A stretch of DNA of 64,000 nucleotides from a virus. Under the pieces are notes generated by a model. That model was given only the letters and a program-made list of their open reading frames with translations, did no database searches and was not told where the DNA came from. Within the stretch, counting starts at the first letter, position 1, and each line of letters starts with the position of its first letter. Both the position numbers and the translations under genes were made by a program. Shown one piece after another: positions 1-16,585 of this stretch. The DNA lies in the IMG/VR virus record IMGVR_UViG_3300045988_128110, positions 1-64,000 of that record; one strand, given 5' to 3'.

Positions 1-48
1 CGAGATTACTACGCGTCTCGTGGGCTCGGAGATGTGTATAAGAGACAG
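1..48. other. Illumina Nextera i7 adapter remnant (CGAGAT + 8-nt index TACTACGC + GTCTCGTGGGCTCGG + Tn5 mosaic end AGATGTGTATAAGAGACAG); non-biological sequence at the contig terminus
   Basis: Exact match to the Nextera read-2 transposase adapter and mosaic-end sequence at positions 7-48, preceded by the P7 primer tail CGAGAT. Confidence 0.9.
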
Positions 49-107
49 TGTATATTCAGCGTTGAAAGTATGTAACAAGATTCGTGTGTTTAAGGTTAAG
101 TTTTAAT

Positions 108-329
108 ATGGAAGTATTTTGAATAACTGGTAGAGGAGCAATATTAAAAGTTTCTGACCGTAATAAAGAATATAAGGTTGGGGAATCTGTAGAGATTAAA
201 AATCGACTATATGAGATAACTGGAATTGAAGGTATGATGCTGTTAACAGAACCTCCTAAAAAAGTTACTGTAGGATTACGATTGAAAATGACTAAAGAAG
301 AGTATAATCAAATAATTTCTAAATTATAA
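108..329 (+). CDS. small hypothetical protein (73 aa) with an in-frame TGA at codon 5
   Basis: ATG at 108, open to TAA at 327-329 if TGA is read as Trp; no recognisable motif. Confidence 0.3.
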
Positions 330-337
330 TTTTACTG

Positions 338-408
338 GGCCATGTAGTGTAAAGGCGAGCACATTTCCTTTGCAAGGAAATAGAGGGGTTCGAATCCCAC
401 ATGTGTCC
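338..408 (+). tRNA. tRNA-like element, possibly degenerate tRNA-Ala (anticodon UGC)
   Basis: Good D-arm (gtgt/aaaggcga/gcac) and anticodon arm (tttcc-tttgcaa-ggaaa, anticodon TGC) and a GGTTCGAATCC T-loop, but the acceptor stem pairs poorly and the variable loop is only 3 nt. Confidence 0.35.
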
Positions 409-526
409 ACAATCTTCTATAAACTAGAGTTCTATATAGAAAGAGTACTGTAATCTGTTAAGGGCTTATAAATCAGACGTTAAAGAAAAAAGTCATCGGG
501 GCTGAAGAGCCCTGCTATGAACTTAA

Positions 527-551
527 TTCCAGTAGAAATACTGGAATTTTT
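527..551 (+). terminator. rho-independent terminator-like hairpin (ttccagta-gaaa-tactggaa followed by TTTTT)
   Basis: 8-bp perfect stem, GNRA-like loop, then a T5 run. Confidence 0.45.
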
Positions 552-554
552 ATT

Positions 555-627
555 GGGACTGCGGTGTGCGTGGTGCGCTCGTTGGACTGAAAATCCAAAG
601 GTGAACGTTCGACTCGTTCCAGTCCCA
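555..627 (+). tRNA. tRNA-Phe (anticodon GAA)
   Basis: 7-bp acceptor gggactg/cagtccc, anticodon arm ttgga-ctgaaaa-tccaa, T-arm gaacg-ttcgact-cgttc, discriminator A; no encoded CCA. Confidence 0.8.
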
Positions 628-715
628 CTAATAGGCTACATACAGCAATTATCTTCTTAATGTATATTTTTTGGATGATAGCGTAGCCTTTCTTTGAAAT
701 TAATTATTACAAAAT

Positions 716-1204
716 ATGACTTGGTATTTAATTTTATTAGTAATCTCTGCTTGTGTCTTAATTGGACAGACAGTCTTATCCTTTATTGGAGGAGAGATTG
801 ATGTTGATATGGATGCAGACTTAGATTCGAGTGACATGTTATCTTTTAAGGGTATTGTTCACTTTGTATTTGGATTTTCTCTAACATTAACTACAATGGG
901 AGGAGTTTCAGTACTATCTACTTTCGTAGCTGTTTTGGTGGGATTGTTATTTACTGTGATTCTGTTCTATCTTTACAGATACATATATAAACATCTTCGT
1001 CAAGAAATCATCTATCAAGATGAAATTAAGGATACTTCCGCACAGGTTTATTATTGGGACTCCGAGTTAAATAAAGGAGAGGTAGTAGTGAAGCTGGAAG
1101 GAAGATTAGTATATGTGGATGCAACATCTACAAAGAATGTTAACTATCAACCTGGAGAATCAGTTATAGTGGAAGGTACACGACATCAAGTAACAATTAA
1201 ATAA
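716..1204 (+). CDS. NfeD-like membrane protein (N-terminal TM helices plus C-terminal OB-fold), partner of the SPFH protein
   Basis: Hydrophobic N-terminus, C-terminal beta-rich soluble domain, sits immediately upstream of an SPFH/flotillin gene as in bacterial nfeD-SPFH operons. Confidence 0.5.
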   Translation: MTWYLILLVISACVLIGQTVLSFIGGEIDVDMDADLDSSDMLSFKGIVHFVFGFSLTLTTMGGVSVLSTFVAVLVGLLFTVILFYLYRYIYKHLRQEIIYQDEIKDTSAQVYYWDSELNKGEVVVKLEGRLVYVDATSTKNVNYQPGESVIVEGTRHQVTIK

Positions 1205-1211
1205 TTAAAAG

Positions 1212-2825
1212 ATGACTCTATTTATCATTCTCGGTGCAGCACTACTGTTAGTGTTGCTCTCAGTAGTGGGAATTCTCTCACGGTACAGAAAATGTCCTTC
1301 TGACAAGATTCTTGTAATCTTTGGTAAGACGGGGGGCGGAAAATCTGCTAAGTGCATCCATGGAGGAGCGGCTTTCGTGGTGCCTATCGTACAGGGTTAC
1401 AGTTTCATGTCACTTAAACCTTTGCAGTTTGAGTGTAATCTTCAGAAAGCTCTGTCTTCACAGAATATCCGAGTAGATGTTCCAACTACTGTGACTGTAG
1501 GTATTTCTACAGAACCTGAAGTAATGCAAATGGCTGCAGAGCGATTGCTTGGATTGACTACTGACCAGATTGAAGATCTCGTTAAGGATATTGTATATGG
1601 TCAGATGCGTCTAATTGTGTCTAATATGACCATTGAAGAGCTGAACTCTGAACGAGACAAGTTCCTGGAAGAAGTGAAGAATGTTGTTGGTGGAGAGCTC
1701 CGTAAGATTGGCCTGCATCTTATCAACGTCAACATCACTGATATCAGGGATGAAGCAGGTTATATCATCGCATTAGGCCAGAAGGACAAAGCAATTGCTC
1801 TTAATAAGGCAAATGTTGAAATCGCTAAGGCTGAAAAGGACGGTGCAACTCAAACTGCAGAGCAGAACAAAATTAAGAACTCTGAAGTTGCTGCAACTCA
1901 ACGTGAGGAAGCAGTTGCGGTCGCAGTGGCAAATGCTGAGCGAGATTCCAAGGTTGCAGAAACTCAGCGTACTCGTGATATCAATGTGGCAACTGCTAAA
2001 GCAGAAGGTGAGATTGGTAAAATCGAAGCTGAGAAGACTGTAACAAACAAGAATGCTGAGTTGGAAGTTGTGCGAGCAGATGCTGAAAAGGCTGCAAACA
2101 CAGCTCGTGTAAAGGCAGACGCTGAAGTCGCTAAGGAGAAAGAGCTTGCTCAGGTAGAGGTCGTTAAGGCTGAAGCAAAAGTGCTGCAAGAGCAGGAACT
2201 CGCTCAGAAGACTGCAGAAGAAGCTCGTGCTCAGCGTCAAGAAGCAGCCTTACGTGCTGATAAGATTGTACCTGCAGAAATTTCTAAGAAAGAGAGTCTG
2301 CTGCGTGCTGAAGCTTATCAGCTGGAACAGGAAAAAATCGCAGAAACCAATGCTAATAAGACTAAAATCGAAGCTGATGGTAAAGCGCAAGCTGAAGCTC
2401 TCAAGGGTGAAGGTGAGGCTAAAGCCATTACTGCTAAAGGTCTTGCTGAAGCAGAGGTTGTTCGTCAGAAAGGTTTGGCTCAGGCAGAAGCAGAGAAAGC
2501 TTCTCTTAAGGCTCAGGCAGATGGTTTCCGTGAGATGATCGAAGCTGCCAAAACTGATCCTGCGATTGCAATTCAGTTCAAGATGGTTCAAGAAGGAACC
2601 TACGAAAACATTGCTAAGCAACAGGTTGAGGCTTACAAGCACATGAACTTCGGTAATGTGACCATCATGGACACTACGAAGGGTGGAGGCCTCACAAATG
2701 TGATGCAGAGCCTTCTGTCTCAAGTATCCCCCATGCTGAATGTTATGAAAGAAATGAAAATTCCTGGAGTATCAAAGGCATTGGAAGAGAAAACTGAGGA
2801 TGCTAAATTTCCTGAAGTTAAATAA
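1212..2825 (+). CDS. SPFH/band-7 (flotillin-like) protein with a long Ala/Glu/Lys-rich coiled-coil repeat region
   Basis: N-terminal TM segment then a band-7 core, followed by an extended AEAKAxA low-complexity coiled coil; GC-richer, host-like codon usage; no in-frame TGA. Confidence 0.65.
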   Translation: MTLFIILGAALLLVLLSVVGILSRYRKCPSDKILVIFGKTGGGKSAKCIHGGAAFVVPIVQGYSFMSLKPLQFECNLQKALSSQNIRVDVPTTVTVGISTEPEVMQMAAERLLGLTTDQIEDLVKDIVYGQMRLIVSNMTIEELNSERDKFLEEVKNVVGGELRKIGLHLINVNITDIRDEAGYIIALGQKDKAIALNKANVEIAKAEKDGATQTAEQNKIKNSEVAATQREEAVAVAVANAERDSKVAETQRTRDINVATAKAEGEIGKIEAEKTVTNKNAELEVVRADAEKAANTARVKADAEVAKEKELAQVEVVKAEAKVLQEQELAQKTAEEARAQRQEAALRADKIVPAEISKKESLLRAEAYQLEQEKIAETNANKTKIEADGKAQAEALKGEGEAKAITAKGLAEAEVVRQKGLAQAEAEKASLKAQADGFREMIEAAKTDPAIAIQFKMVQEGTYENIAKQQVEAYKHMNFGNVTIMDTTKGGGLTNVMQSLLSQVSPMLNVMKEMKIPGVSKALEEKTEDAKFPEVK

Positions 2826-2843
2826 TTAACTTCTTTGATTTTT

Positions 2844-2869
2844 CTAGTGGGCTGAAATACGCCCACTAG
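2844..2869 (+). terminator. intrinsic terminator hairpin (ctagtgggc-tgaaatac-gcccactag)
   Basis: 9-bp perfect inverted repeat directly after the SPFH stop codon, followed by AT-rich sequence. Confidence 0.55.
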
Positions 2870-2885
2870 AATTTAACTTTATTTT

Positions 2886-3283
2886 ATGTTTTCACATTTA
2901 AAAAATTCTAAACTGCAAGGAAATGTTGGGATGGCATATGCTATCGCATTTTATTCAAAATTAGGGTGAATAGTATCTATTCCTATGACAGATTCTCAGG
3001 ACTACGATTTACTCGTAGATAATGGGAAAATATATTGAAGATTCAAGTTAAAACTACCACGCAGGTAGATAAAAGGACTGGAAATTTCCAAGTAGGATTG
3101 AGAACTTGTGGAGGAAATCGAAAGAATTATTGAGCTAAGACTTTCAATAATAACTCTAGTGATTTTCTATTTGTTGTAACTTCTTTCAAAGAATTTTATT
3201 CAATTCCAGTTAAAGAACTTGAAGGAATTAGAACATCAATTTCCTTATGTGGTAAATATGATAAATATAAAGTAGAGTTATAA
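2886..3283 (+). pseudogene. PD-(D/E)xK nuclease (Hjc/homing-endonuclease-like) disrupted by a 1-nt frameshift in an A4 run near 3027-3030
   Basis: Frame 0 encodes MFSHLKNSKLQGNVGMAYAIAFYSKLGWIVSIPMTDSQDYDLLVDNGK, then frame +2 continues (E)NILKIQVKTTTQVDKRTGNFQVGLRTCGGNRKNYW...KYDKYKVEL. The D..D...E/K-IQVKTT arrangement is the classic PD-(D/E)xK motif, and one extra A in gggaaaa restores a single ORF. Confidence 0.5.
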
Positions 3284-3286
3284 AAT

Positions 3287-3381
3287 CCCGACGTAACACC
3301 GTTTGACTGTAAATCAAATCCCCGTTAATAAATTGGTGTAGTGGACTCTGGGGTAGTGAGGTTCGAATCCTCACGGCGGGA
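3287..3381 (+). tRNA. atypical tRNA-like element; anticodon-like hairpin tttga-ctgtaaa-tcaaa (GUA) plus a canonical T-arm and a 3' acceptor strand; the structure is unresolved
   Basis: Perfect T-arm tgagg-ttcgaat-cctca; 5' cccgacg pairs 6/7 with 3' cggcggg; no normal D-arm can be placed; 95 nt long. Confidence 0.3.
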
Positions 3382-3396
3382 CTAATTTATATTGGT

Positions 3397-3867
3397 ATGA
3401 AAATTGTAGATAATTTTATATTCTTCTGGGGAGGTTGGTTAAGTAACTTTCATCCTTGTAGAATAGTATTTGGCTCTAAAGTTTTTAAATCATCTGAACA
3501 GCTTTTTATGTATCTTAAAGCTTTACATTTTGGTGATGTAGAAACAGCAGAGAAGATTCTATTAGCAGAGACTCCAAAGGAAGCTAAAAACCTTGGTAGG
3601 GAGGTTAGAAACTTTGATGAGAAATCCTGGAATGAGGTTAAGATTCAGAAAATGTATCTTGCCTTGGAAGGTAAGTTTAGCCAAAATAAAGACTTAATGG
3701 ATAAACTTAAAGACCCAGCATTAGACGGGAAATTCTTTGTTGAAGCATCTCCCTTTGATAGAATCTGGGGTATAGGCTATGATCAAGATCATGCACTTCA
3801 AAACCAATCAAATTGGGGAGAAAATCTACTTGGTAAGACTCTTACCTTTTACAGAGGATCTTTATAA
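3397..3867 (+). CDS. NADAR-domain (YbiA-like) protein, a putative ADP-ribose/NAD-derived N-glycosidase
   Basis: FFWGGWLSNF, a following SSEQ.FM..KA motif, EASP.D.IWGIG; these are the diagnostic NADAR (DUF1768) motifs. Confidence 0.7.
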   Translation: MKIVDNFIFFWGGWLSNFHPCRIVFGSKVFKSSEQLFMYLKALHFGDVETAEKILLAETPKEAKNLGREVRNFDEKSWNEVKIQKMYLALEGKFSQNKDLMDKLKDPALDGKFFVEASPFDRIWGIGYDQDHALQNQSNWGENLLGKTLTFYRGSL

Positions 3868-3924
3868 ACAATTTGCGGATATTGACATCGTTCAATATCC
3901 GCTTTATTTTTAAAACTTAATAAG

Positions 3925-5616
3925 ATGTTTGAAGCAAAAAAGAAAACATTATTTGCTGTTGATAACAGTAAATCGGCATCTAAATCAGCCTTTATTCAGG
4001 CAGGATTAAAAACTGCAGCAGAAACCACTACAGGTAACGGTGGCAAAGCCTATTCCAGTACAGGGGATCCCTTCGTTGACCAGTTTGGCAGTACATCTAA
4101 GTACAGAGAGATCCGCCCATTTGCAGAAATTGCAAAAGACTGTGAAATTCTCTGGGCAGAAAATAAAGAAGATACTGTTAAATTTATCTTTTTCTTGCGA
4201 ATGATTTGTCGTAAGATTAATGATAAAAAGTATGGTACCAAAGAAGCACAAAAGGGTTCTGAACTTCGTCATGAAGGTATTATGCGTCTCATCTGGCTAC
4301 ATACCAAAGATAAAGAAGTATTCTGGAAGAATGCTTGGCTGATTCCCTTGGTGGGTTCTTGGAAAGATCTCTTCGTTATGCTTCGTTATGACTTAGTTTA
4401 TAACGGCTGGGAACACCGAGTTCTGGATTGGCGTCGTTTTGCAGATCTGATTACTGCAGGTCTTGGCTCTGATTCTCAAACGAATCTCATTCGTAAGTAT
4501 CTTCCTCAGATCAAGGCACGTTCCAAGTGTACTACAGTAGAGGCACAAGCAAATTGTATGATTGCAAAATGGCTGTGTTCAGAACTTTACGGCGCGTCAG
4601 GAGTAAGGACAGATGCTGAAAAGTATCAAGTATATCGTTCTTATGCAAGGATGAAAGCTGCAGGAACAGCACATAGCTGGCAACAGCTTATTTCAAAGCA
4701 ACGATATACGGAGATTGACTTTGATAAGATTCATGGTCGTGCCTTAAACCTTCTTGTACATTCCAAGTTCTTAGAGAATCATAATCTCAAAGAGAAGTAT
4801 CAGGAATGGATAGGAGCTTCAGAGACAAAGGAGGTGAAGTACACAGGTTTCGTACATGAGCTCTTTAAACCTATTTGTAACACTGCTCCTCGTAATATAG
4901 AGCAGCATATCAAAGATACTATTAACAAGCAATTTATGACCCTTGTTAATAAGTGTAAGGAAGAGGGCAATACTACAGACCTTATCGTAGTACGTGATAC
5001 TTCTGGTTCAATGGGTGCAGAAGCAACTGGAACTTCCATGTCTTGCTACAATGTAGGTAAGGCAATTGCTCTGTATTTCTCTTATTTCTTAAGAGGGAGA
5101 TTCCAAAATGCATGGATTGAGTTTAACTCAAAAGCTATGATGCATGAGTGGAAAGGAGAAACTCCTCTGGAGAAATGGTTTAATGACCATTCGGGGTACT
5201 ATGGAAGTACAAACTTTGAGGGTGTTATTAACCTCTTTGCTCAGTTGAAGCTTGAAGGTGTTCCAGAAGAGGAATTTCCTAAAGGAATTCTTTGTATCAG
5301 TGATTGTGAGTTTGATGCTTCAAGTCTGAATAAGACTTCAGTTGAAAGAGTCCATGATACATTGACAGCTGCAGGATTTTCTAAAGAGTATGTTGACAAT
5401 TTTGTCATTTGCCTTTGGAATTTGAGAAATGATTACTACGGAGATACTGCGCAGAATCGCACTCCATTCCAAACTTATGGTGATGTCAAGAATGTCTACT
5501 ACATGTCTGGATATTCAGCACAGATTGTATCTTTCTTAAATGGAAAGGTACAGACTACACGGGATCTGTTTGATGAGGCTATGAATCAAGAGATTCTGTC
5601 TCTCATTAAGATGTAA
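3925..5616 (+). CDS. large hypothetical protein (563 aa) with a C-terminal vWA-like domain (VVRDTSGSM)
   Basis: DxSGSM MIDAS-like motif at about residue 345; no other recognisable domain. Confidence 0.45.
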   Translation: MFEAKKKTLFAVDNSKSASKSAFIQAGLKTAAETTTGNGGKAYSSTGDPFVDQFGSTSKYREIRPFAEIAKDCEILWAENKEDTVKFIFFLRMICRKINDKKYGTKEAQKGSELRHEGIMRLIWLHTKDKEVFWKNAWLIPLVGSWKDLFVMLRYDLVYNGWEHRVLDWRRFADLITAGLGSDSQTNLIRKYLPQIKARSKCTTVEAQANCMIAKWLCSELYGASGVRTDAEKYQVYRSYARMKAAGTAHSWQQLISKQRYTEIDFDKIHGRALNLLVHSKFLENHNLKEKYQEWIGASETKEVKYTGFVHELFKPICNTAPRNIEQHIKDTINKQFMTLVNKCKEEGNTTDLIVVRDTSGSMGAEATGTSMSCYNVGKAIALYFSYFLRGRFQNAWIEFNSKAMMHEWKGETPLEKWFNDHSGYYGSTNFEGVINLFAQLKLEGVPEEEFPKGILCISDCEFDASSLNKTSVERVHDTLTAAGFSKEYVDNFVICLWNLRNDYYGDTAQNRTPFQTYGDVKNVYYMSGYSAQIVSFLNGKVQTTRDLFDEAMNQEILSLIKM

Positions 5617-5624
5617 ACTCAATA

Positions 5625-5653
5625 GGCTCTAGTAGAAGTACTAGAGCCTTTTT
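5625..5653 (+). terminator. strong rho-independent terminator (ggctctagta-gaag-tactagagcc followed by TTTTT)
   Basis: 10-bp perfect stem, 4-nt loop, T5 run, 9 nt after the stop of the preceding gene. Confidence 0.75.
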
Positions 5654-5799
5654 ATTAATAATCTAATTATGGGTAAGTACCTTAAAGATTATCAAATTCC
5701 TGATTATTGTGAGGAGGATAAACCTAGAATGCCAAAACGGCCTAAGAAGTTTAAAGACCAAGAGGGAGGAAAACCTTTAGTAAAGAAAAAGTTCAAGCG

Positions 5800-6102
5800 A
5801 TGAAGAGATGATTCTTAAGAATATTTAGAAGGTTTAATGAACCATCAACTGATAGTTCAAAAGAATTTCCTAAAAAAGTAATTGACTTAGAACAATTTGA
5901 CGATGTATTTATAATTACTAATAAAAAGGTATATAAGGCCTGGGTTATGAAAAGAACCAGTAGACTTCTACAGATTTTTATTTGGGAGTCTAAAAAGGAG
6001 GTAATTATAAATACAATTGGACAAGCTAATTCTAGTGTTATTCCTTTTGGCAAGGATAGCTATTTAATTATAAATAAAAAAGATATATGCGATTACTTGT
6101 AG
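5800..6102 (+). CDS. hypothetical protein (100 aa) with one in-frame TGA; overlaps the pncA-like start
   Basis: ATG at 5800, open to TAG at 6100-6102 with TGA read as Trp; it competes with a minus-strand shadow ORF 5793-6053. Confidence 0.25.
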
Positions 6103-6668
6103 TAGTTGATATGCAAGAAGACTTCATCAGAGGTGCATTAACGGTTCCTGGTGCTGAAGAAATAATTTCTCCTATAGAGAGATTAGTTAAAGAGTATATA
6201 ACAGCAGATGATGCTGTTCTTTTTACTCGGGATACTCATTATGAGCATAGTGATACTAGGGGATTTGGCTACGCTATGACTCGTGAAGGTAGAAATCTTC
6301 CAATTCTTCATTGCGTTTGTGGAACTGAAGGTCATAAGCTTATTAAGGAGTTTAAGCCTTATCTTCGTTCCTGCTATGTAATGGATAAACTAAATAGGTT
6401 TGGATTTATCCAGGATGAGTTTAATGATGCTAAGACAGGTGATGGAGAATATTTATTCGACATCGCTGATTGCATTACAGAAATTACTTTGGTTGGTGTA
6501 GTAACTAATCTTTGTGTTATTTCATGTGCTGTAAGTTTTCAGCAAACATTCCCTGATGCAGATATCATCATAGATGCTTCCTGCTGTCGTTCTAATAATA
6601 ATGAACTTCATAACAAAGCTTTAGATGTTATGGAGGGTTTACAAATGACTATAATTAATCGTTATTAA
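6087..6668 (+). CDS. pncA: isochorismatase-family hydrolase, probably a nicotinamidase (PncA-like)
   Basis: N-terminal LLVVVDMQ.DF motif of the isochorismatase/nicotinamidase family; located next to nadV and nadE. Confidence 0.6.
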   Translation: MRLLVVVDMQEDFIRGALTVPGAEEIISPIERLVKEYITADDAVLFTRDTHYEHSDTRGFGYAMTREGRNLPILHCVCGTEGHKLIKEFKPYLRSCYVMDKLNRFGFIQDEFNDAKTGDGEYLFDIADCITEITLVGVVTNLCVISCAVSFQQTFPDADIIIDASCCRSNNNELHNKALDVMEGLQMTIINRY

Positions 6669-6669
6669 T

Positions 6670-8154
6670 ATGTTTAAACCTTGTGGAGCTCTACTGACTG
6701 ATTTTTATAAACAATGTCATGCAGAGCAATATGACCCTAGCATCACTAAGGTAGTTTCTTACTATGTACCTCGTAAAACTAGGATTCCTGAATTTGATAA
6801 GGTAGTAGTTTTTGGTATTCAAGCATTTATTGAGGAGTATCTGATTGAATACATGAATGAAACTTTCTTTAGTCGTTCTTTAGAAGAAGTTATTGCAGAA
6901 TATGAATTTGTAATTTCTTCTACTATGGGAGCAGACCGTGTTAATTCGGATAAAATTAAAAAGCTTCATGAGTTAGGATATCTTCCTATCGAGATCTGGG
7001 CACTTCCTGAGGGATATAAAGTAGGAATGAATGTCCCCTGTATCGAGATTTCTAATACTAATCCAGAATTTGCATGGTGTACTAATTTCATTGAAACCTT
7101 GATGCTCTCTGAGCTTTGGTATCCAATGTGTGTTGCAACTGCTGTAACTAAATATCGTAGTATCGTAAATGATTTTTATTCTAAAACTTCTGATATTTCT
7201 GGTCGTTCTGCTATTTCTGAGTTCGGATTTAGAAGTTTAGTTGGACTTCATGGCGCTATTAAAGCTTCATGTGGGTTTTTGCTCTCTTTTAATAAGACTG
7301 CGACTATTCCTGGCATTATATATGCTTCAAAGTATTATCATACCCCAATGTCTGTAGTAGGTGGAGGTATGGCTTCTACTGAGCACTCCGTAATGTGTAG
7401 TTCTGCTGCCATTGATGGGGATGAAAAAGTTATGATTCGACGCCTCCTTACTGAGGTCTACCCTAATGGATCATTCTCTATGGTAAGTGATTCCTATGAT
7501 TACTGGAATATTGTCGATGAAATTCTCCCATCTCTTAAGGAAGAAATTCTCAGTAGAAACGGCACTTTGTATGTTCGTGGTGACTCTGGAGATCCTGTAG
7601 AAATTGTAACTGAGACAGTTTTCTCTCTTTGGGAGACTTTTGGAGGTACTGTCAACTCTAAAGGGTATAAAGTCTTAGATCCTCATGTTCGAGCTTTGTA
7701 TGGTGATGGTATCACTCAGTTACGTGCAAAACAGATTTATCAGATTTTGTACGATACGGGATTCTCTGCAGAAAATGTTGCACTTGGTGCAGGAGGATTT
7801 TCTATGCTTTCTTACATGGACGAGTTTGGAAATGTCGATATGTTCTCTCGTGATACATTTAATGTAGCAATTAAGTGTAGCTATGTAGAACAAACCATTG
7901 ATGGAAAAACTAAATCTATTATGGTTTACAAAGATCCTAAAACAGATTCAGGAATGAAGAAGTCCCATAAAGGATGCTGTGCTGTTTTCTACAACCATGT
8001 AACTGGTGAGTTTGATTGTGATGAGGGTATGACACTGAAAGAAGCTCATAATGAGCCTTTTAATTTACTTCGTCCTATCTTTTCAAATGGAAAAATGAGA
8101 GAGCAAACCACTCTCACAGAAATTCGTAGAACTCTTTGGAACGGAGAATTTTAA
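6670..8154 (+). CDS. nadV: nicotinamide phosphoribosyltransferase (NAMPT/NadV)
   Basis: LLTDFYKQCH N-terminus and the overall length and motifs of type II NAPRT/NAMPT. Confidence 0.75.
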   Translation: MFKPCGALLTDFYKQCHAEQYDPSITKVVSYYVPRKTRIPEFDKVVVFGIQAFIEEYLIEYMNETFFSRSLEEVIAEYEFVISSTMGADRVNSDKIKKLHELGYLPIEIWALPEGYKVGMNVPCIEISNTNPEFAWCTNFIETLMLSELWYPMCVATAVTKYRSIVNDFYSKTSDISGRSAISEFGFRSLVGLHGAIKASCGFLLSFNKTATIPGIIYASKYYHTPMSVVGGGMASTEHSVMCSSAAIDGDEKVMIRRLLTEVYPNGSFSMVSDSYDYWNIVDEILPSLKEEILSRNGTLYVRGDSGDPVEIVTETVFSLWETFGGTVNSKGYKVLDPHVRALYGDGITQLRAKQIYQILYDTGFSAENVALGAGGFSMLSYMDEFGNVDMFSRDTFNVAIKCSYVEQTIDGKTKSIMVYKDPKTDSGMKKSHKGCCAVFYNHVTGEFDCDEGMTLKEAHNEPFNLLRPIFSNGKMREQTTLTEIRRTLWNGEF

Positions 8155-8948
8155 TGGAAAAAGAATATAAAAAAATAATATCCTTCCTTAAGGATTACCA
8201 AACTCACACTAATGCTCGTGGTTATGTTCTGGGCATTAGTGGAGGGAAGGATTCTACTATAGTAGCTAAGCTTCTAGTGGATGCTATAGGAAAAGAAAAT
8301 GTATTAGGTGTTTTAATGCCTGATGGGGAGCAAAAGGATATCAGTGATAGTTTAGAAGTATGCAAATATTTAGATATCAGACATATACTAATAAATATTT
8401 CACATCCTTTTACCTCACTATTGAGTTCTATCGAAAGAACCACTCTAGAAAAATCCATAGATGTAGGAATTCCTAATCTTGTTTCAGATGGTTCCCCAAT
8501 TATAATTTCTGATAAAGCTTTAACTAATATTGCACCTCGCATTCGCATGGCAACTCTATATGCGATTGCTCAGTCTTTGGGTTACGGAGTAGCTGGAACA
8601 GGTAACAAGTCCGAAGCATTTATTGGATGGTGTACAAAATGGGGAGATATGGCTTGTGATATTAATCCAATTGCACACTTGACTTGTACAGAAGTTGTAA
8701 AACTGGGAGACTTCATGGAGTTGCCTTATAATTTAGTTCATAAAGTCCCTGCAGATGGATTAACAGGCAGATCTGATGAAGAAAATTTTGGATTTACTTA
8801 TCAAGAGCTTGATGTTCTCATTGAAAAAATGGAGCGATTAGATCGTACAGGACATCTTACGAGTCCATTTACTGAAATTGAATTACAAATCTTAAAATTA
8901 CATGAAGCTGCGTATCACAAAGATCATGTAATTAAAATACATTATTAA
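8136..8948 (+). CDS. nadE: NH3-dependent NAD+ synthetase (NadE)
   Basis: PP-loop GISGGKDST, then GTGNKSE and TKWGD motifs. Confidence 0.8.
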   Translation: MERRILMEKEYKKIISFLKDYQTHTNARGYVLGISGGKDSTIVAKLLVDAIGKENVLGVLMPDGEQKDISDSLEVCKYLDIRHILINISHPFTSLLSSIERTTLEKSIDVGIPNLVSDGSPIIISDKALTNIAPRIRMATLYAIAQSLGYGVAGTGNKSEAFIGWCTKWGDMACDINPIAHLTCTEVVKLGDFMELPYNLVHKVPADGLTGRSDEENFGFTYQELDVLIEKMERLDRTGHLTSPFTEIELQILKLHEAAYHKDHVIKIHY

Positions 8949-8949
8949 T

Positions 8950-9840
8950 ATGGGAAGCGGATCATGGAGTTCTAGCACATATAAAGCTTTTGCTGATAGC
9001 TATACTAAAAAATCCAGAGAAGAAATCTTTCATCAAAGATCTCTACACGAAGAAATGGATCTTACAAAAAGTAAGACACATATTCGAGAATCTAGAGATT
9101 CTGAGGAACACCCAGAATCTCTTCCAGTTTTCATTGCATTAGATGAAACTGGTTCAATGGGTTCAATTCCTGATAAGATGATCAGGGATTATCTTCCGAA
9201 GTTAATGGATTCTATTATTGATTCTATTGGAGTTAAACACCCTCAAATTCTTTTTATGGGAGTGGGAGATCATGAATGTGATTACTACCCGTGTCAGGTA
9301 GGTCAATTCGAATCTTCAACTGTTGCAATTAATCAGTGTCTCTCTAAAATTTATTTGGAGGGTCGTGGTGGAGGTAATAGTGGAGAATCCTACTTACTTC
9401 CTTGGATTATTGCAGGAAATCATACGTCAATTGATAGTTGGGAAAAGCGAAAGCAAAAAGGATTCCTTTTTACAGTTGGTGATGAACCTACTTTGACAAG
9501 AATAAGTAGGGGAACTTTGGCAGCTCTCACTGGAATGGAGTATGAGCGTGATTATACCTGGCAGGAGGCTTATGAACTTGCCTGTGAGAAATATCATGTG
9601 TTTCATATTCATGTTCGACATGGAAGTGAACATTATGATGAGGTAGTAGCTAAACAAATGAAAGAAATTCTTAGAGAAAACTTTATTGTGTGCAAGCCTG
9701 ATGAAGTTGTAGAAGCCATTTGTGAAGCTATGGGTAAAACTCTAAAAGGTAGCTCTTCAGTAATTGAAGAGATTTCTGCAGAAGGAACTGTAGAAAATAC
9801 AGAATCAAAACCTAATATATTTGACATACATCGACGATAA
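8950..9840 (+). CDS. vWA-domain protein (FIALDETGSMGS)
   Basis: DxTGSM MIDAS motif; a second vWA protein in the window. Confidence 0.45.
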   Translation: MGSGSWSSSTYKAFADSYTKKSREEIFHQRSLHEEMDLTKSKTHIRESRDSEEHPESLPVFIALDETGSMGSIPDKMIRDYLPKLMDSIIDSIGVKHPQILFMGVGDHECDYYPCQVGQFESSTVAINQCLSKIYLEGRGGGNSGESYLLPWIIAGNHTSIDSWEKRKQKGFLFTVGDEPTLTRISRGTLAALTGMEYERDYTWQEAYELACEKYHVFHIHVRHGSEHYDEVVAKQMKEILRENFIVCKPDEVVEAICEAMGKTLKGSSSVIEEISAEGTVENTESKPNIFDIHRR

Positions 9841-10934
9841 TGTATAATATTGTAGTGGGTTGTACGTTTGGCGACGAGGGCAAGGGTCAAGTGACTCATG
9901 CCCTCTGTTGCGACGCTAAAAGAAAACATTTAAAACCTCTAGTTGTTAGATTTTCTGGAGGGCATCAAGCAGGGCACACAGTAGTTACTTCGTCTGGAAC
10001 AATGCATATATTTTCTTGCTTTGGGTCTGGAACATTTGCTAAGGCACCTACTTATTGGACGAAACAATGTGTTATGGATCCACTACAATGGATGCGGGAG
10101 CGAGAGGAGTTAGATTTCCTAGGATGTAATATCCCTATCCAATATTTTGATCCATATGTACAAATAACAACTCCTTTTGATGTAATGTTGAATTCTGAAA
10201 GGGGTAAAGGTTCTACAGTAGGGAAAGGAATATGGGAGACTATTCAGAGACAAAGAGAAGGATTAGCTTTATATGTAAAAGATTTAGCTTTTCCTCAAGT
10301 TGTAAAAATGAAGCTCCGATTAATTAGAGAATGGGCGGAAGATAGACTCCAGTTTAAGGAAACTTATTCAAGATTTGCTCATGTTTTCGATAACTTAGAT
10401 TCTTTAGTACATACTTATTGTAAGATTTTTTATCCCAATATAGTATTGGAGGATACGTTATCTAAATTAGCATGGAAAGAAAAGACTTCTGTGATATTTG
10501 AGGGTTCTCAAGGAGTACTTTTGGACCCTAATATTGGATTTTCACATGAATATACTACCCCACTTCCATGTTGTCCATCGTGGAACAATCTCCCATTCTT
10601 TTTAACTGATGATCAACTAATATTTAATTTTGTATATAGATCTTATTTAACAAGACATGGTAAAGGGCCTGTTGGAGATTCTATATTTAAGGAGATTAAT
10701 AACCCTTATGAAACAAATTTAAATAATCCTTTTCAAGGAGAATTTCAAACTTATGAATTCAATAAGGAATTAGTCTTATATGGAATTGATCATGTTAAAT
10801 CACACTTTAATCCTGAATATAAAGTAAGGTTGATTGAAACATGTTGTGACATATGTGTAGGACATGACTTAGGAATTCCTTATAATTACTCTATCAAAAC
10901 CTGCAAAAAGAATTTTGACTCTGTATGCAAATAA
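9840..10934 (+). CDS. purA: adenylosuccinate synthetase-like protein (PurA family)
   Basis: GDEGKGQ P-loop and a SGGHQAGHT motif, matching the PurA GDEGKGK / GGHNAGHT signatures. Confidence 0.6.
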   Translation: MYNIVVGCTFGDEGKGQVTHALCCDAKRKHLKPLVVRFSGGHQAGHTVVTSSGTMHIFSCFGSGTFAKAPTYWTKQCVMDPLQWMREREELDFLGCNIPIQYFDPYVQITTPFDVMLNSERGKGSTVGKGIWETIQRQREGLALYVKDLAFPQVVKMKLRLIREWAEDRLQFKETYSRFAHVFDNLDSLVHTYCKIFYPNIVLEDTLSKLAWKEKTSVIFEGSQGVLLDPNIGFSHEYTTPLPCCPSWNNLPFFLTDDQLIFNFVYRSYLTRHGKGPVGDSIFKEINNPYETNLNNPFQGEFQTYEFNKELVLYGIDHVKSHFNPEYKVRLIETCCDICVGHDLGIPYNYSIKTCKKNFDSVCK

Positions 10935-11731
10935 TTAACTTTTTATACCCAGAAAAGTCAGAAATAAAGTATCGAATTGATACTTATCCTGATTCCCAAT
11001 CCCATCTTGTACTTGAGTCTGAAATGGATAGACGAAAGTCCCTGCTGATCTATACTAGATTATCCAATTTGAATGATATTTGGATTCTAATGCAATTAGC
11101 GGATATTTGTCATCGTCAAGGTATCCAGATTTCCTATCTACAAATAGCTTATTTGTTTGCAGCGCGAACTGATAGATTATTTTCTTTTAATGAGGCATTA
11201 GATTTGGAGCTTGTTAAAAAATGTCTTATCTTTGTACAAGCACAGCAAATTCTAGTACTGGATCCTCATTCTAAGCGTTTGATTACAGAAGGGGTAATTG
11301 ATAATGACTGGCCTGCATTCTTTGCTTTAAAACCAGGTTCTAATATTCCAGAGAATGTTTTATTCCCTGACGAAGGTGCCTATCATCGTTACAGTGAGCT
11401 TTTTGACTTTGATACGACATACTATGCTACAAAGCATAGGATTTCAAGAGATAAGTTAGAGGTAAAATTACCTTCTAGAATAAAGCCAAATACTTCTATT
11501 CTAGTTTTTGATGACTTATGTGATGGTGGAGGAACTTTCTTTGCAATTTATAAAGCATTACAAGACATGGGAGTAACTGATGTGCATTTACGTGTCACAC
11601 ATGCTATCCAAAAAGAACCTTTAGTAAAGTTGTCAGAACTTTACAAAACAATAACAATTACCAATTCTTATAAGGATTGGGATAAAGAAGAACTTCCAAA
11701 CAATATAAAAGTAATAAAAGTTTATGAATAA
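10925..11731 (+). CDS. prs: phosphoribosyltransferase-domain protein, probably ribose-phosphate pyrophosphokinase (PRPP synthetase)-like
   Basis: VFDDLCDGGGTF PRPP-binding motif; sits next to nadV as in phage NAD salvage cassettes. Confidence 0.5.
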   Translation: MQIINFLYPEKSEIKYRIDTYPDSQSHLVLESEMDRRKSLLIYTRLSNLNDIWILMQLADICHRQGIQISYLQIAYLFAARTDRLFSFNEALDLELVKKCLIFVQAQQILVLDPHSKRLITEGVIDNDWPAFFALKPGSNIPENVLFPDEGAYHRYSELFDFDTTYYATKHRISRDKLEVKLPSRIKPNTSILVFDDLCDGGGTFFAIYKALQDMGVTDVHLRVTHAIQKEPLVKLSELYKTITITNSYKDWDKEELPNNIKVIKVYE

Positions 11732-12074
11732 ATTTAATGAAATTCTGAGTGCTACTGGAACTGCAGTACTCAAGAAACGTGCTGAAATCATCAATGCTGA
11801 TGCCCGCGAAGCAGCTAAGGATCAGGTTAATCTCATTGAGAAAGAGATTCGTCAGATTAAGTCCAAGATTATGAATCTGGAGGATCTGTCGATTAAATCG
11901 ACCGAATCACTGGTTGTAGGTACGGACTTTAAGGCAGATGAGTGGGTAACTCAGATGTTCAAGCTTCGTGATGACCTGCGCAACGCTGAAATCTGTCTGG
12001 AAATTGCTCAGAATATTTATAATGAGTATTTCACAGAACTTCCTGAAGTAGACTGTGATAAGAAAGCAGAATAG
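11724..12074 (+). CDS. hypothetical coiled-coil protein (116 aa), GC-richer codon usage
   Basis: Complete ORF followed directly by a strong terminator. Confidence 0.4.
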   Translation: MNKFNEILSATGTAVLKKRAEIINADAREAAKDQVNLIEKEIRQIKSKIMNLEDLSIKSTESLVVGTDFKADEWVTQMFKLRDDLRNAEICLEIAQNIYNEYFTELPEVDCDKKAE

Positions 12075-12080
12075 CTTTAC

Positions 12081-12102
12081 AGGCGGAGTAAATCCGCCTT
12101 TT
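12081..12102 (+). terminator. rho-independent terminator (aggcgga-gtaaa-tccgcct followed by TTTT)
   Basis: 7-bp GC-rich stem plus a T run, 7 nt after the stop codon. Confidence 0.75.
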
Positions 12103-12174
12103 GGTTCTATAGTTTAATTGGAAAAATTTTAGAATACGAATCTAAAGATGAGAGTTCGAATCTTTCTAGAACCT
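12103..12174 (+). tRNA. tRNA-Arg (anticodon ACG)
   Basis: Acceptor ggttcta/tagaacc, anticodon arm ttaga-atacgaa-tctaa, T-arm gagag-ttcgaat-ctttc; no CCA. Confidence 0.8.
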
Positions 12175-12191
12175 CAAATATTATTAATGCT

Positions 12192-12512
12192 ATGAAAACA
12201 AATTCTTTTTTTGTTGTTTATTATAATAATGGGGAATTAAAAAAATATGATATAATTCCTTACTTAGTTGATAAGTATGAATCTTTGTCTAGAAAAAATC
12301 GTCCAAATCTTAGACTTTATAACTCGGTGAAGGAATTTATTGTTAAAGAATGCCGTTATCAATTTTGGTCTCGATGTGAGTATGAAATTATTATATCTTC
12401 ATGGCCTAATGAGATCAATAAGAAAAAGATAGATGTTTATGATCAGATAGTACTAAATATTGATATTATTACTAAAATATTAACCTCCTATCTTACTATG
12501 TTAGGTTATTAA
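12192..12512 (+). CDS. hypothetical protein (106 aa)
   Basis: Complete ORF between two tRNA genes. Confidence 0.35.
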   Translation: MKTNSFFVVYYNNGELKKYDIIPYLVDKYESLSRKNRPNLRLYNSVKEFIVKECRYQFWSRCEYEIIISSWPNEINKKKIDVYDQIVLNIDIITKILTSYLTMLGY

Positions 12513-12520
12513 TTTATTTT

Positions 12521-12594
12521 AGGGAGTTGGCGCAATTGGTTAGCGCAGGAATCTTATACATTCAAGGTTATGAGTTCGAGTCTCATATTCCCTA
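12521..12594 (+). tRNA. tRNA-Ile (anticodon UAU, reads AUA)
   Basis: Acceptor agggagt/attccct, D-arm gcgc-aattggtta-gcgc, anticodon loop cttatac, T-arm atgag-ttcgagt-ctcat. Confidence 0.65.
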
Positions 12595-12787
12595 CCTATG
12601 AAAACTGTTTTATATAGAATACAATCAATTGAAGCTCCCGAAGGAGAGGGGTTTCGATATAATTCATTAAGAACATTATCTGATACAAAAGTGAATGAAG
12701 AAATGTGCTTAAGGAATGAATTTGGAGATCATTATTTAATTAATGATCCTGATTACTGAATTTGTGAGATTTTAAAGGAAATAGAAG

Positions 12788-13849
12788 ATGATGTATAGTT
12801 TAGATGAAATAGGTATTTTACCTAGTTCAAAAGCCACGGATATTACAAGTCGTAGTGAGTGTAGTCCTTTAGGAGACTTAGGAACATATCCTATTTTCGT
12901 TTCTCCTATGACATCCGTTATTGATGAATCAAATTATCAATTTTTTACAAAGGCTAATGTTCTTCCAATTATTCCAAGACGTGTAGATAATTTACAGTTT
13001 AGACTTAATGCATGTAACCATGTTTGGTGTGCCTTTAGTTTAAAGGAATTTGAAATGTACTTTTGTGAAGGAGAAGTCTCTGATGAATGTCCTTTAGTAC
13101 TTATTGATCTGGCTAATGGTCATATGAAGAAAATTTATGATTTAGTTAAAAAAGCTAAAGAAAGATGGAGTACTATTATCATAATGGTTGGAAATATCGC
13201 ACACCCAGATATTTATTGGGAATGTTGTGACGCAGGAGTAGATTATGTTCGTGTAGGTATTGGAACAGGTAGTGTATGTACTACAGGTGTAAAAACTGGA
13301 ATACATGCTTCGATGGAATGGTTACTACGAAAGTTATCCACCTGTAAGACACTAATTAATGCTTCTCCTAAACCTATGAAAGCTCCTAAAATTATTGCAG
13401 ATGGAGGCATTTCTACAATAGATAGAGCTATAAAGTGTTTAGCTTTAGGTGCTGATTATGTTATGATGGGCAAAATGTTTGCACAATGTGAGGAGGCTTG
13501 CGGGCAAACTCGGACAAAAGGACTAGATGATAATCCTGAGACGCTTAGATATTTTATGTCTCTAACTAAAGCAGACAGAGAACGAGTTATTGGACTGTAC
13601 CCCAAAGAAAGACTATACTACGGAATGGCAAGTGAACGTGGTCAAAAGGACATTTCTGATACTAAAAAGGCTGAAGAAGGAATCAAGATTTGGGTTCCTG
13701 TTGAATGTACTCTTGAGTCTTTACTTTCTCAATTTGATTCCGCATTAAGATCTGCTATGTCTTATACTGGATGTAGAACTCTTCAAGAGTTTAAGAATGT
13801 AGAATGGGAATATATGTCTCCTTCTGAAAGAAATGCTTATTACAAATAA
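12788..13849 (+). CDS. IMP dehydrogenase/GMP reductase family protein
   Basis: GIGTGSVCTTG catalytic-loop motif (compare GIGPGSICTT) and a TIM-barrel layout. Confidence 0.65.
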   Translation: MMYSLDEIGILPSSKATDITSRSECSPLGDLGTYPIFVSPMTSVIDESNYQFFTKANVLPIIPRRVDNLQFRLNACNHVWCAFSLKEFEMYFCEGEVSDECPLVLIDLANGHMKKIYDLVKKAKERWSTIIIMVGNIAHPDIYWECCDAGVDYVRVGIGTGSVCTTGVKTGIHASMEWLLRKLSTCKTLINASPKPMKAPKIIADGGISTIDRAIKCLALGADYVMMGKMFAQCEEACGQTRTKGLDDNPETLRYFMSLTKADRERVIGLYPKERLYYGMASERGQKDISDTKKAEEGIKIWVPVECTLESLLSQFDSALRSAMSYTGCRTLQEFKNVEWEYMSPSERNAYYK

Positions 13850-14027
13850 AATGAATAATCTTGGTTTATACACAGTAATAGTTTTTGGAATCTTTGTTTT
13901 ATGTTTATTATTAGGACTTGGATTTGCATTAACTATGTGGTCTGCTCCTTGGGGAATATTCTACTTTGGAGGAATGATCGTACTTACTATTTATTATCTT
14001 AATATATTAAAAGATAGAATAGAGTAA
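13833..14027 (+). CDS. small membrane protein (64 aa)
   Basis: Two hydrophobic helices. Confidence 0.3.
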   Translation: MLITNKMNNLGLYTVIVFGIFVLCLLLGLGFALTMWSAPWGIFYFGGMIVLTIYYLNILKDRIE

Positions 14028-14037
14028 TTAAAGGTTT

Positions 14038-14122
14038 GCGGAGGTGACCAGAATGGATAATGGACCAGTCTTCTAAACTGGCGGCTGAATAGTCATTGTG
14101 GGTTCGAGTCCCACCCTCCGTA
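14038..14122 (+). tRNA. class II (long variable arm) tRNA with anticodon UCU (nominally Arg, AGA) and discriminator A73
   Basis: Acceptor gcggagg/cctccgt, anticodon arm ccagt-cttctaa-actgg, a 16-nt variable region with a ggct/agtc hairpin, T-arm gtggg-ttcgagt-cccac; 85 nt. Confidence 0.55.
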
Positions 14123-14138
14123 CTAATAACATTATAAT

Positions 14139-14513
14139 ATGGCATGGATATATAGAGATAAAAATGGAGACCTAATGTTCTCCAAAGTAAAACCTGAAAA
14201 AGTTTATATTTTCAGGTTTAAAAATTGTGAAATTCATAAAGAATCAGAAAGTACATGGTCTCCATTTCTGGACTACAACCATATTATAACAGCTAGGATA
14301 CCTGAAAGTTATTTTGAAACTCCTGGTTATTATGAAGTGAATGATTATGGAGATGACAATGTGCTTAGAAAGGTTTATAAAAATGAATGTGTTTTTGAAG
14401 GAGACTACACTATGGGTTTTCCTGTAGAATTTAAACCTGAGACTATTTCTGCTTTAAAACCTATTGTTGATTTAGAAAATCTTACTATTGAGGATGGATT
14501 AATTGAACTATAA
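14139..14513 (+). CDS. hypothetical protein (124 aa)
   Basis: Complete ORF. Confidence 0.35.
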   Translation: MAWIYRDKNGDLMFSKVKPEKVYIFRFKNCEIHKESESTWSPFLDYNHIITARIPESYFETPGYYEVNDYGDDNVLRKVYKNECVFEGDYTMGFPVEFKPETISALKPIVDLENLTIEDGLIEL

Positions 14514-14776
14514 TGAAAGAGATTAAAATTAACAATAACATTGAAGAAGATCATGTTCCTTTATATAATCCTGAAGGTAAGTTAGTTGGAATTATAGAAA
14601 ATGAACTAGCTTTTAATGATGTTCGTATTCAAATCATGGAAAACAAACTAAGAGGGTACTATATTGTATATAAAGGTCAGGTATGTCGAATAGATATTCA
14701 TGGAGAATTAGATATTTGGCCTAATGACTTATATAGGACAAATGTAGACCAACTATCAAAATTATTATGCTTTTAG
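14513..14776 (+). CDS. hypothetical protein (87 aa)
   Basis: Complete ORF with an ATGA start/stop overlap. Confidence 0.35.
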   Translation: MKEIKINNNIEEDHVPLYNPEGKLVGIIENELAFNDVRIQIMENKLRGYYIVYKGQVCRIDIHGELDIWPNDLYRTNVDQLSKLLCF

Positions 14777-14777
14777 T

Positions 14778-14966
14778 ATGAAACAAATAAAAACATACTG
14801 TCCAAATTGTGGTAGGGAAACTATTCATGTTATTTATACAGAAGATGGATATGGGGCTTCTGGTGTAGCAAGAATTTTTTCAAGTTTACTTTCCCTTGGA
14901 ACGTCTAATTTAGCTTGTACTACATACAGTAAATGTATTAGTTGTGGAAAGACTAAAGAATTATAA
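14778..14966 (+). CDS. small zinc-ribbon protein (CPNCG...CISCG)
   Basis: Two CxxC pairs. Confidence 0.35.
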   Translation: MKQIKTYCPNCGRETIHVIYTEDGYGASGVARIFSSLLSLGTSNLACTTYSKCISCGKTKEL

Positions 14967-15231
14967 AATGATTAATGACCAAATTAAAAAGTTAGCTAAT
15001 AAAAAGATTCCATTATATAATAACTCTTCTAGTTTATATGATATTTTGGATTGGCTACGGGAGAAAAAATTCCTACATGTAGAGATACAATGGTATCCTC
15101 ATGGTTGGATGTTTGTTATTTATAAAATTGATTCTCAAGAGGATGAACCATATGATACTTTCTCTGAAGTATATACTAGTTATCTAGATTGTTTAGAAGC
15201 TGGAATTATAAGAGCATTAAATCTTATATAG
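14944..15231 (+). CDS. hypothetical protein (95 aa)
   Basis: Complete ORF. Confidence 0.3.
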   Translation: MERLKNYKMINDQIKKLANKKIPLYNNSSSLYDILDWLREKKFLHVEIQWYPHGWMFVIYKIDSQEDEPYDTFSEVYTSYLDCLEAGIIRALNLI

Positions 15232-15853: not shown

Positions 15854-15856
15854 TTT

Positions 15857-16579: not shown

Positions 16580-16585
16580 AGGTTT

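Follow-up and report, generated by a model that had tools for sequence, protein, structure and literature searches.

NADAR-domain N-glycosidases strip ADP-ribose from guanine modified by the DarT1 toxin (PMC11543638), and all of the enzymes assayed, drawn from all four families, remove guanosine-linked ADP-ribose from both DNA and RNA (PMC11125620, PMC11833690). The superfamily is split by the residue at the position of E125 in P. nicotianae NADAR, which is Glu in the general NADAR family and in YbiA, Asp in the DarT1-linked DarG1 proteins and His in the T4-type AdfN proteins (PMC11543638, PMC12945103). Glu-type enzymes additionally remove cytidine-linked ADP-ribose (PMC12945103), and the thymidine-linked ADP-ribose of DarT2 is reversed by no NADAR (PMC11125620, PMC11257639). 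NADAR domains are found in ~48% of medium and jumbo phages and in 27% of myoviruses (PMC9503650), and three different phage NADARs counter the DarTG1 system (PMC11257639). Here we describe a NADAR gene carried on a 64,000-nucleotide stretch of viral DNA (positions 1 to 64,000 of IMG/VR record IMGVR_UViG_3300045988_128110), which we refer to as the window.

The window protein belongs to the NADAR superfamily and shows each of the defining features that could be tested. Its homology and intact active site, together with the accessory behavior of its gene, lead us to propose, with a probability of about 0.6, that it removes base-linked ADP-ribose from phage nucleic acids and so defeats host ADP-ribosyltransferase toxins.

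Family assignment of the window NADAR

The first-pass annotation had read a NADAR/YbiA-like N-glycosidase from the letters of positions 3397-3867, and the hidden Markov model (HMM) match, the fold and the catalytic Glu, Lys, Asp and Trp positions all bear this out. Both halves of the signature on which it relied, FFWGG and EASPFDRIWGIG, are present (aa 9-13 and aa 116-127). The Pfam NADAR model PF08719, named there as a check, matches with E=3e-41 (141.8 bits against a gathering cutoff of 35.1 bits, profile positions 11-160 of 163). The protein also matches PHROG 1017 (E=1e-45) and the NCBIfam model TIGR02464 (134 bits against a cutoff of 73.7), a domain-level equivalog named 'riboflavin biosynthesis intermediates N-glycosidase'. 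Among 5.8 billion clustered metagenome proteins 543 homologues were recovered, with PF08719 present in 120 of the 120 matches listed. Given the concordant Pfam, NCBIfam, PHROG and homologue matches, the NADAR identity is real and far beyond chance. Since the open reading frame (ORF) is free of internal TGA and TAG codons and its stop codon is TAA, the gene call is independent of the genetic code used, a point that matters in this genome (see below).

Within the superfamily the protein carries Glu (E116) at the E125 position and is thus of the Glu type. By BLASTP it is 39% identical to P. nicotianae NADAR (79 bits) and 32% identical to YbiA (45 bits), and in a sequence search of the PDB the P. 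nicotianae entry 8BAU scored 68 bits versus 30 bits for YbiA with the single sequence, and 128 versus 79 bits with a profile of the clade.

Fold and active site

An AlphaFold2 model of the protein, built on 64 homologues, has a mean predicted local distance difference test (pLDDT) score of 98.1 and shows the α-helical core flanked by small β-hairpins that defines the NADAR/YbiA fold. Structure prediction was the other check suggested at first pass, and the model superimposes on 8BAU with a template modeling (TM) score of 0.87 (Foldseek E=1e-11, 34% identity) and on E. coli YbiA (2B3W) with a TM score of 0.78; nothing else in the PDB was found by Foldseek at E<1. The protein consists of the catalytic core only, with the first conserved strand already starting at residue 2-10, and has an isoelectric point of 6.8.

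The 8BAU structure is that of P. nicotianae NADAR with bound ADP-ribose, contacted by E43, K50, R79, W89, E125, D130 and W133 (PMC11543638). These residues align with E34, K41, R68, W78, E116, D121 and W124 of the window protein. Across the 64 homologues, which extend down to 44% identity, no variation is seen at E34, K41, W78, E116, D121 or W124, and at least 90% keep R68; in the FFWGG motif F10 is invariant and W11 is kept in at least 90%. The equivalents of E34 and K41 in DarG1 of E. coli C7 are the catalytic residues E88 and K95 (PMC11543638), while E116 corresponds to the catalytic Glu of Glu-type enzymes (E125 in 8BAU, E167 in SCO5665), D121 to D130 and W124 to W133 (PMC11543638, PMC12945103). 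The catalytic Glu and Trp positions, whose loss on the alignment would have spoken against the family assignment, are all kept (E34, E116, W78 and W124). Because the ADP-ribose contacts are both aligned and conserved, we regard the catalytic apparatus of the window NADAR as intact.

Presence and absence among close relatives

Scored with the NADAR HMM, the gene is present in 11 of 16 scorable loci of the lineage and absent in the other 5. When the five loci lacking it are compared with the window by blastn, sequence corresponding to 3253-3393 is joined straight to that of 3870-4225, and these flanks are 94-99% identical. As the flanks join directly, the missing piece is exactly the NADAR gene. 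Among these near-identical phages its presence or absence is a clean polymorphism of one gene, the pattern that an accessory gene would be expected to show.

Two neighbors of the gene bear on how this is understood, a Ro60-like gene immediately downstream and an NAD+ salvage and nucleotide cassette further downstream (Table 1). In one relative (L012/L095) the NADAR gene is 99% identical to that of the window while the block from the isochorismatase-family gene through the PurA-family gene is absent; conversely, L092, L093, L098 and L101 have the NAD+ cassette and no NADAR. Gained and lost separately, NADAR and cassette are independent accessory modules. In distant phages a NAMPT homologue is at most 10 kb away from NADAR at 10/74 loci, versus 4/63 for control loci centered on the Ro60-like gene, a non-significant difference (Fisher p=0.26), and a functional tie between NADAR and the NAD+ cassette, which we considered, is unsupported on both counts. 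An obligate pairing of NADAR with the Ro60-like gene was likewise rejected: only 3/63 distant loci with the Ro60-like gene have a NADAR within 8 kb, and five close relatives keep the Ro60-like gene alone. The adjacency of the two is specific to this lineage. The context thus supports an accessory gene within an early region of conflict and metabolism genes, and a fixed multi-gene system is unsupported.

A second presence/absence block was seen among near-identical relatives at positions 710-3252 (ORFs 716-1204 and 1212-2825). It encodes a flotillin-like SPFH/Band-7 protein (537 aa), whose coiled region is long and rich in Ala, Glu and Lys, together with a small upstream ORF, and has a G+C content of 0.445 versus a window mean of 0.33.

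Proposed function and alternatives

What we observe directly is the family to which the protein belongs, its fold and intact active site, and the setting and accessory status of its gene; the substrate, the efficacy in the cell and the host toxin countered are what we infer from them. In the mechanism that we favor the protein would act as a functional stand-alone Glu-type N-glycosidase, composed of the core only and devoid of an N-terminal DNA-binding extension, and would be expressed early from the same strand as the tRNA array and beside the NAD+ salvage genes. It would cut the N-glycosidic bond by which the distal ribose of ADP-ribose is attached to an exocyclic nitrogen of a base in DNA or RNA, with guanine N2 as the presumptive target and possibly cytosine as well, by analogy with Glu-type enzymes. 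E34, K41 and E116 are predicted to position and activate the distal ribose, and D121, W124, W78 and R68 to hold the ADP-ribose, so that free ADP-ribose and the restored base would be released. As an accessory counter-defense function the enzyme would erase base ADP-ribosylation introduced by DarT1-like or pierisin/ScARP-like host toxins, allowing phage replication and translation to proceed.

The proposal made at first pass, removal of ADP-ribose from guanine modified by DarT-type toxins, stands for DarT1 (PMC11543638) and fails for DarT2, whose thymidine modification is not reversed (PMC11125620, PMC11257639); rescue from DarT2 toxicity, suggested as a test, was therefore misdirected, given that NADARs do not reverse thymidine ADP-ribosylation (PMC11125620, PMC11257639). 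The suggestion that a phage copy is a plausible anti-defense gene has held up better, as phage NADARs have been shown to act against DarTG1 (PMC11257639) and one of them, NADAR-Bas60, is a homologue of the window protein (35% identity).

Several points weigh against the function that we favor. The window NADAR lacks the basic N-terminal extension thought to bind single-stranded DNA in DarT1-linked NADARs, and YbiA and T4 gp30.3, which are also core-only, are active in vitro yet do not rescue from DarT1 in uninfected cells (PMC11125620). The protein also passes the riboflavin-intermediate model TIGR02464, and Iyer et al. 2022 argue for small soluble ADP-ribose derivatives, and not macromolecules, as the substrates of most phage NADARs (PMC9503650). 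That last view, in which the substrates would be N-glycosidic links in NAD-derived immune signals or toxic by-products, such as cyclic ADP-ribose-type molecules or base- and amino acid-ADP-ribose conjugates made by TIR, Sir2 or ADP-ribosyltransferase effectors, would have the enzyme blunt signaling and feed ADP-ribose to the neighboring NAD+ salvage enzymes. It was proposed from a genome-wide context analysis that noted NADAR beside NAD+ salvage genes (PMC9503650), and the nicotinamidase-like, NAMPT-like, NadE and Prs-like genes ~2.2 kb downstream, the cyclic-phosphate-processing receiver (cREC) protein encoded in the window, and the DUF4326, Nudix and macro neighbors of NADAR in other phages all fit it. 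Yet cleavage of such signals has been shown for no NADAR, the published active substrates being base-linked ADP-ribose on DNA or RNA, or riboflavin intermediates, and the independent gain and loss of NADAR and cassette, like the non-significant proximity of NAMPT, argue against a partnership with NAD+ salvage; we regard this explanation as unlikely. Damage control of the YbiA kind, meaning hydrolysis of reactive riboflavin-biosynthesis intermediates (N-glycosides of the 5-amino-6-ribosylamino-uracil type) during infection, would account for the TIGR02464 match, for the detectable homology to YbiA and for the labels 'ribA/ribD-fused' or 'GTP cyclohydrolase II' that homologues often bear. The 'GTP cyclohydrolase' labels, however, are transferred from plant fusion proteins, no riboflavin-pathway gene was found among the ~58 window ORFs scanned, both PDB searches place the protein nearer to P. 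nicotianae NADAR than to YbiA, and presence or absence in near-identical phages suits a conflict gene more than a housekeeping gene, which makes this the least probable of the explanations considered here.

RNA rather than DNA could be the main substrate, the enzyme removing base ADP-ribose from tRNA or other RNAs, including phage tRNAs, as part of RNA quality control or repair with the Ro60-like protein. NADARs do reverse guanosine- and cytidine-linked ADP-ribose on RNA (PMC11833690, PMC12945103), the gene is flanked by a tRNA array and a Ro60/TROVE-like gene, and the window encodes an RNA ligase, a PNKP-type phosphatase, an RlaP-type nucleotidyltransferase and the cREC protein. Against this, the Ro60-like adjacency is lineage-specific, and an anti-phage defense that ADP-ribosylates RNA bases and is reversed by NADAR has not yet been described, so that we consider an RNA substrate rather unlikely. 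More doubtful still is an extended version, in which the protein would be a broad eraser of RNA base ADP-ribose instead of an anti-DarT1 DNA eraser, guarding the phage tRNA pool and other RNAs from undescribed defenses together with the Ro60-like protein while the NAD+ cassette recycles the ADP-ribose.

Genomic setting

The window is phage-like, with large ORFs all on one strand, a G+C content of ~33% and nine tRNA genes. It encodes ribonucleotide reductase, Dda-like and DnaB-like helicases, a PolA-type polymerase and ThyX, as well as the RNA-repair set named above (RNA ligase, PNKP phosphatase, RlaP-type nucleotidyltransferase and cREC domain protein). This locus is also found, its NADAR identical, on IMG/VR viral contigs of 140-179 kb. 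The gene is carried by a large uncultured phage of roughly 140-180 kb. No cultured relative was found at the DNA level by megablast of window positions 1-20000 against 50,697 phage records, in which only the first ~55 bases matched. The start of the contig is adapter contamination: an Illumina Nextera read-2 adapter (GTCTCGTGGGCTCGGAGATGTGTATAAGAGACAG) lies at positions 15-48, within 1-55, and explains why the ends of numerous unrelated phage records match at 92-100%. The features of the locus are collected in Table 1.

Table 1. Features of the NADAR locus and of the surrounding window (window coordinates)
Feature	Position	Strand	Description and basis
NADAR-domain CDS	3397..3867	+	156 aa, ATG start at 3397, TAA stop at 3865-3867; ORF list, Pfam, AlphaFold2, Foldseek
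FFWGG motif	aa 9-13, nt 3421-3435	+	First β-hairpin of NADAR core; translation, conservation
EQLFMYLK segment (E34...K41)	nt 3496..3519	+	8BAU alignment; equivalents E43/K50 in P. nicotianae NADAR
EASPFDRIWGIG	aa 116-127, nt 3742-3777	+	Holds E116, D121, W124; alignments
NADAR presence/absence unit	3394..3869		476 bp, missing in L092, L093, L096, L098, L101; blastn against window
tRNA-Tyr(GUA)-like gene	3287..3381	+	Ends 15 nt upstream of NADAR ATG; last member of long tRNA array
Terminator-like hairpin	3875..3910	+	11-bp stem plus T-run, 8 nt after NADAR stop codon; retained in relatives lacking NADAR
Ro60/TROVE-like plus vWA protein	3925..5616	+	Pfam DUF2828/DUF7788, PHROG 850; next gene downstream of NADAR
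NAD+ salvage / nucleotide cassette	6087..11731	+	~2.2 kb downstream of NADAR
TGA-split ORFs	28589-29539, 30204-31298, 33263-34306, 56347-57060, 60158-61120, 61044-62318, others		

The tRNA-Tyr-like gene that precedes NADAR has an acceptor stem, anticodon stem-loop, long variable arm and T-arm and lacks a D-arm. It was not called by ARAGORN, an Rfam scan of 2700-4000 gave nothing credible, and its fold energy does not improve on that of shuffled sequences. In L014 and L003 the copy differs by paired changes that fall in four stems (acceptor, anticodon, variable and T), L009 and L012 carry a conventional tRNA-Tyr in this position, and in the relatives lacking NADAR the element lies directly upstream of the Ro60-like gene. 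The element may have a Y-RNA-like role.

The DUF2828/DUF7788 protein encoded on the other side of NADAR is predicted to fold like the Ro60 autoantigen, with a TROVE ring plus a vWA domain: its AlphaFold2 model (pLDDT 80.7) has as top Foldseek matches the TROVE domain and Ro60, over the full length and at E=9e-7 to 4e-4. The protein is very strongly conserved: over 100 clusters from large phage-like contigs show 53-57% identity, numerous Trp, Arg and Asp residues are invariant, and there is a MIDAS-like motif, VVRDTSGSM. We know of no functional literature on DUF2828/DUF7788 proteins. The stand-alone cREC protein at 15422-15853 (Pfam E=6e-21) is predicted to be another component of ADP-ribose or RNA-end processing in the same early region.

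The cassette encodes an isochorismatase-family (nicotinamidase-like) protein, a NAMPT-like protein, NAD synthase (NadE), a PHROG 2971 protein, a PurA-family protein and a Prs/Adps-like protein. The combination of nicotinamidase and NadE points to a route of the Preiss-Handler type, leading from nicotinamide to NAD+, in contrast to the published phage pathways NARP1-3. No adenylyltransferase for nicotinamide mononucleotide (NMN) or nicotinic acid mononucleotide (NaMN) is recognizable in the cassette, and the PHROG 2971 protein (296 aa, matching nothing in Pfam or the PDB) is a candidate for this step. The Prs-like protein was considered as the Adps of NARP1; it is only 25-27% identical to the phage Prs/Adps group, and we leave this assignment undecided. 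Similarly, the PurA-family protein (9840-10934) belongs to PHROG 1211, which is labeled PurZ-type, whereas its PDB matches are all adenylosuccinate synthetases (PurA, E ~1e-13) and none could be identified as PurZ, so that here too the choice is left undecided. A gene at 39412-40176 encodes the N-terminal domain of a dATP/dGTP diphosphohydrolase (Pfam PF18909, MazZ-type), which together with the PHROG 1211 label gives an unproven hint of 2-aminoadenine (Z-base) DNA synthesis. The pair of PHROG 2971 and PurA-like genes was seen again in distant phage loci (L150, L157, L159 and L160). NADAR beside phage NAD+ salvage genes has been noted earlier (PMC9503650).

In the window ~20 ORF pairs share a frame and are linked by just one TGA, versus ~6 each for TAG and TAA; they include the DnaB-like helicase, whose two halves each match Pfam DnaB_C, and the PolA exonuclease motif (LFLF*NAKFDL, where the asterisk marks the TGA). 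Taken with a tRNA of anticodon UCA (17604-17694, called 'SeC' by ARAGORN), these pairs suggest that part of the genome uses TGA as a sense codon; genes containing sense TGA are consequently fragmented in table-11 ORF lists. A CUA-anticodon tRNA (amber suppressor, ARAGORN 'Pyl') was seen in the array upstream of NADAR in the relatives L009 (3695-3775) and L013 (8933-9013), and the lineage may recode TAG as well as TGA. For comparison, a NADAR protein and a nicotinamidase are likewise listed for the TAG-recoded gut Phassvirus group (PMC10607447).

NADARs in other phages and bacteria

Homologues from cultured phages were found in 818 records, spanning Staphylococcus Kayvirus, Listeria, Bacillus and Enterococcus phages, Vibrio and Erwinia jumbo phages, Lak phages and others, and many of them are mislabeled 'GTP cyclohydrolase II'. 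Neighboring genes in other phages are related to ADP-ribose or NAD, which fits the function that we favor as well: in Bacillus phage FADO a macrodomain lies two genes from NADAR, and in a Vibrio jumbo phage Nudix and HD proteins lie near it. On three jumbo-phage-like contigs from Hadza gut samples (L171-L173, 58-296 kb, positions 5001-5885) a DUF4326 gene was seen directly downstream of NADAR, with an NAD-dependent DNA ligase and an AAA_33 kinase also nearby. DUF4326 has been proposed to process ADP-ribose phosphates (Iyer et al. 2022, PMC9503650), and NADAR-DUF4326 is a recurring ADP-ribose-processing pair in jumbo-phage-like contigs. NADARs of the same clade (46% identity) were also seen in two metagenome-assembled genomes of Rikenellaceae (L174, 888-3760; L175, 889-3761), where the gene comes directly after those for a reverse transcriptase (RVT_1) and for a 307-aa protein that bears no annotation, and an integrase adjoins; the locus looks like a retron- or DRT-like defense island with a NADAR component.

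Significance

Since phage NADARs are common and their counter-defense role has been published, the window NADAR is another member of a known family, and current understanding is unchanged: NADARs are widespread in big phages (PMC9503650) and the anti-DarTG1 role was already demonstrated (PMC11257639). If the proposed activity is real, one more uncultured, probably gut-associated lineage of large phages has an eraser of ADP-ribosylation on nucleic acids, and its host population would be expected to use base-directed ADP-ribosyltransferase defenses. The natural variants with and without NADAR, and with and without the NAD+ cassette, offer a convenient comparison set.

Comparison with known NADAR systems

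Several known NADARs were considered as possible identities or close models, and those described first differ from the window protein in defining features. DarG1, the DarT1-associated NADAR antitoxin of the BC4488 subfamily for which Asp is the criterion (PMC11543638), belongs to the same superfamily and shares the same guanine-ADP-ribose hydrolysis chemistry, with the equivalents of E34 and K41 catalytic in the enzymes of E. coli C7 and G. lovleyi. It has Asp at the E116 position, a basic N-terminal extension and an adjoining DarT1 gene; the window NADAR has none of these, and the two could not be connected by sequence search either, so that identity with DarG1 was rejected. No DarG1-type structure in the PDB was reached at E<=1 by the single sequence or the clade profile, the only NADAR entries found being 8BAU and 2B3W. 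In keeping with this, the scanned window ORFs contain no ADP-ribosyltransferase domain, the immediate neighbors being the tRNA-like and Ro60-like genes, and PADLOC returned no DarG-type match and only the candidate family PDC-M42C.

AdfN (T4 gp30.3) resembles the window protein as a core-only phage NADAR used in counter-defense. Its only substrate is guanosine-linked ADP-ribose, and it performs best in T-even infections (PMC11257639, PMC12945103). Identity with AdfN was rejected on the presence of Glu instead of His (KHSI stands against VEAS in the alignment) and on the marginal similarity in a profile comparison (hhalign probability 19%). E. coli YbiA (2B3W) shares the core-only fold and the Glu type; it has YWGDG where the window protein has the IWGIG tryptophan context, its gene lies in the LexA-controlled dinG operon, and it acts on riboflavin intermediates. 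The DS-32 anti-phage NADAR (NCBIfam NF053876) was likewise rejected, at 47.1 bits against a cutoff of 240. As a sigma70-linked comparison a NADAR gene beside rpoD was sought in the E. coli O157:H7 Sakai record, in which none is annotated.

The P. nicotianae enzyme (8BAU) is the best match in both sequence and structure, is of the Glu type and shares all of the ADP-ribose contacts, and enzymes of its family hydrolyze guanosine- and cytidine-linked ADP-ribose (PMC11543638, PMC12945103). The oomycete protein has a short N-terminal sheet and an insertion beside the active site, both of which are missing from the phage protein (189 versus 156 aa), and its biological setting is unlike that of the phage protein. 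The closest phage parallel is NADAR-Bas60 (bas60_0111 of Escherichia phage PaulScherrer, MZ501100), which is alignable over 169 columns (E=7e-23, 94% query coverage) and which neutralizes DarT1 and lets phages grow again on hosts with DarTG1 (PMC11257639). Like the window protein it is a stand-alone NADAR from a large myovirus-type genome, has VEASP.D with the catalytic Glu and is not linked to a DarT gene. Unlike the window protein it has 183 aa, two insertions and Tyr at the W124 position, and its neighbors, an FtsH-like protease and hypothetical proteins, differ from those of the window locus; its host is E. coli. As judged from sequence, the window NADAR appears to stand closest to the general NADAR family and to NADAR-Bas60, and it is these that it would work most like.

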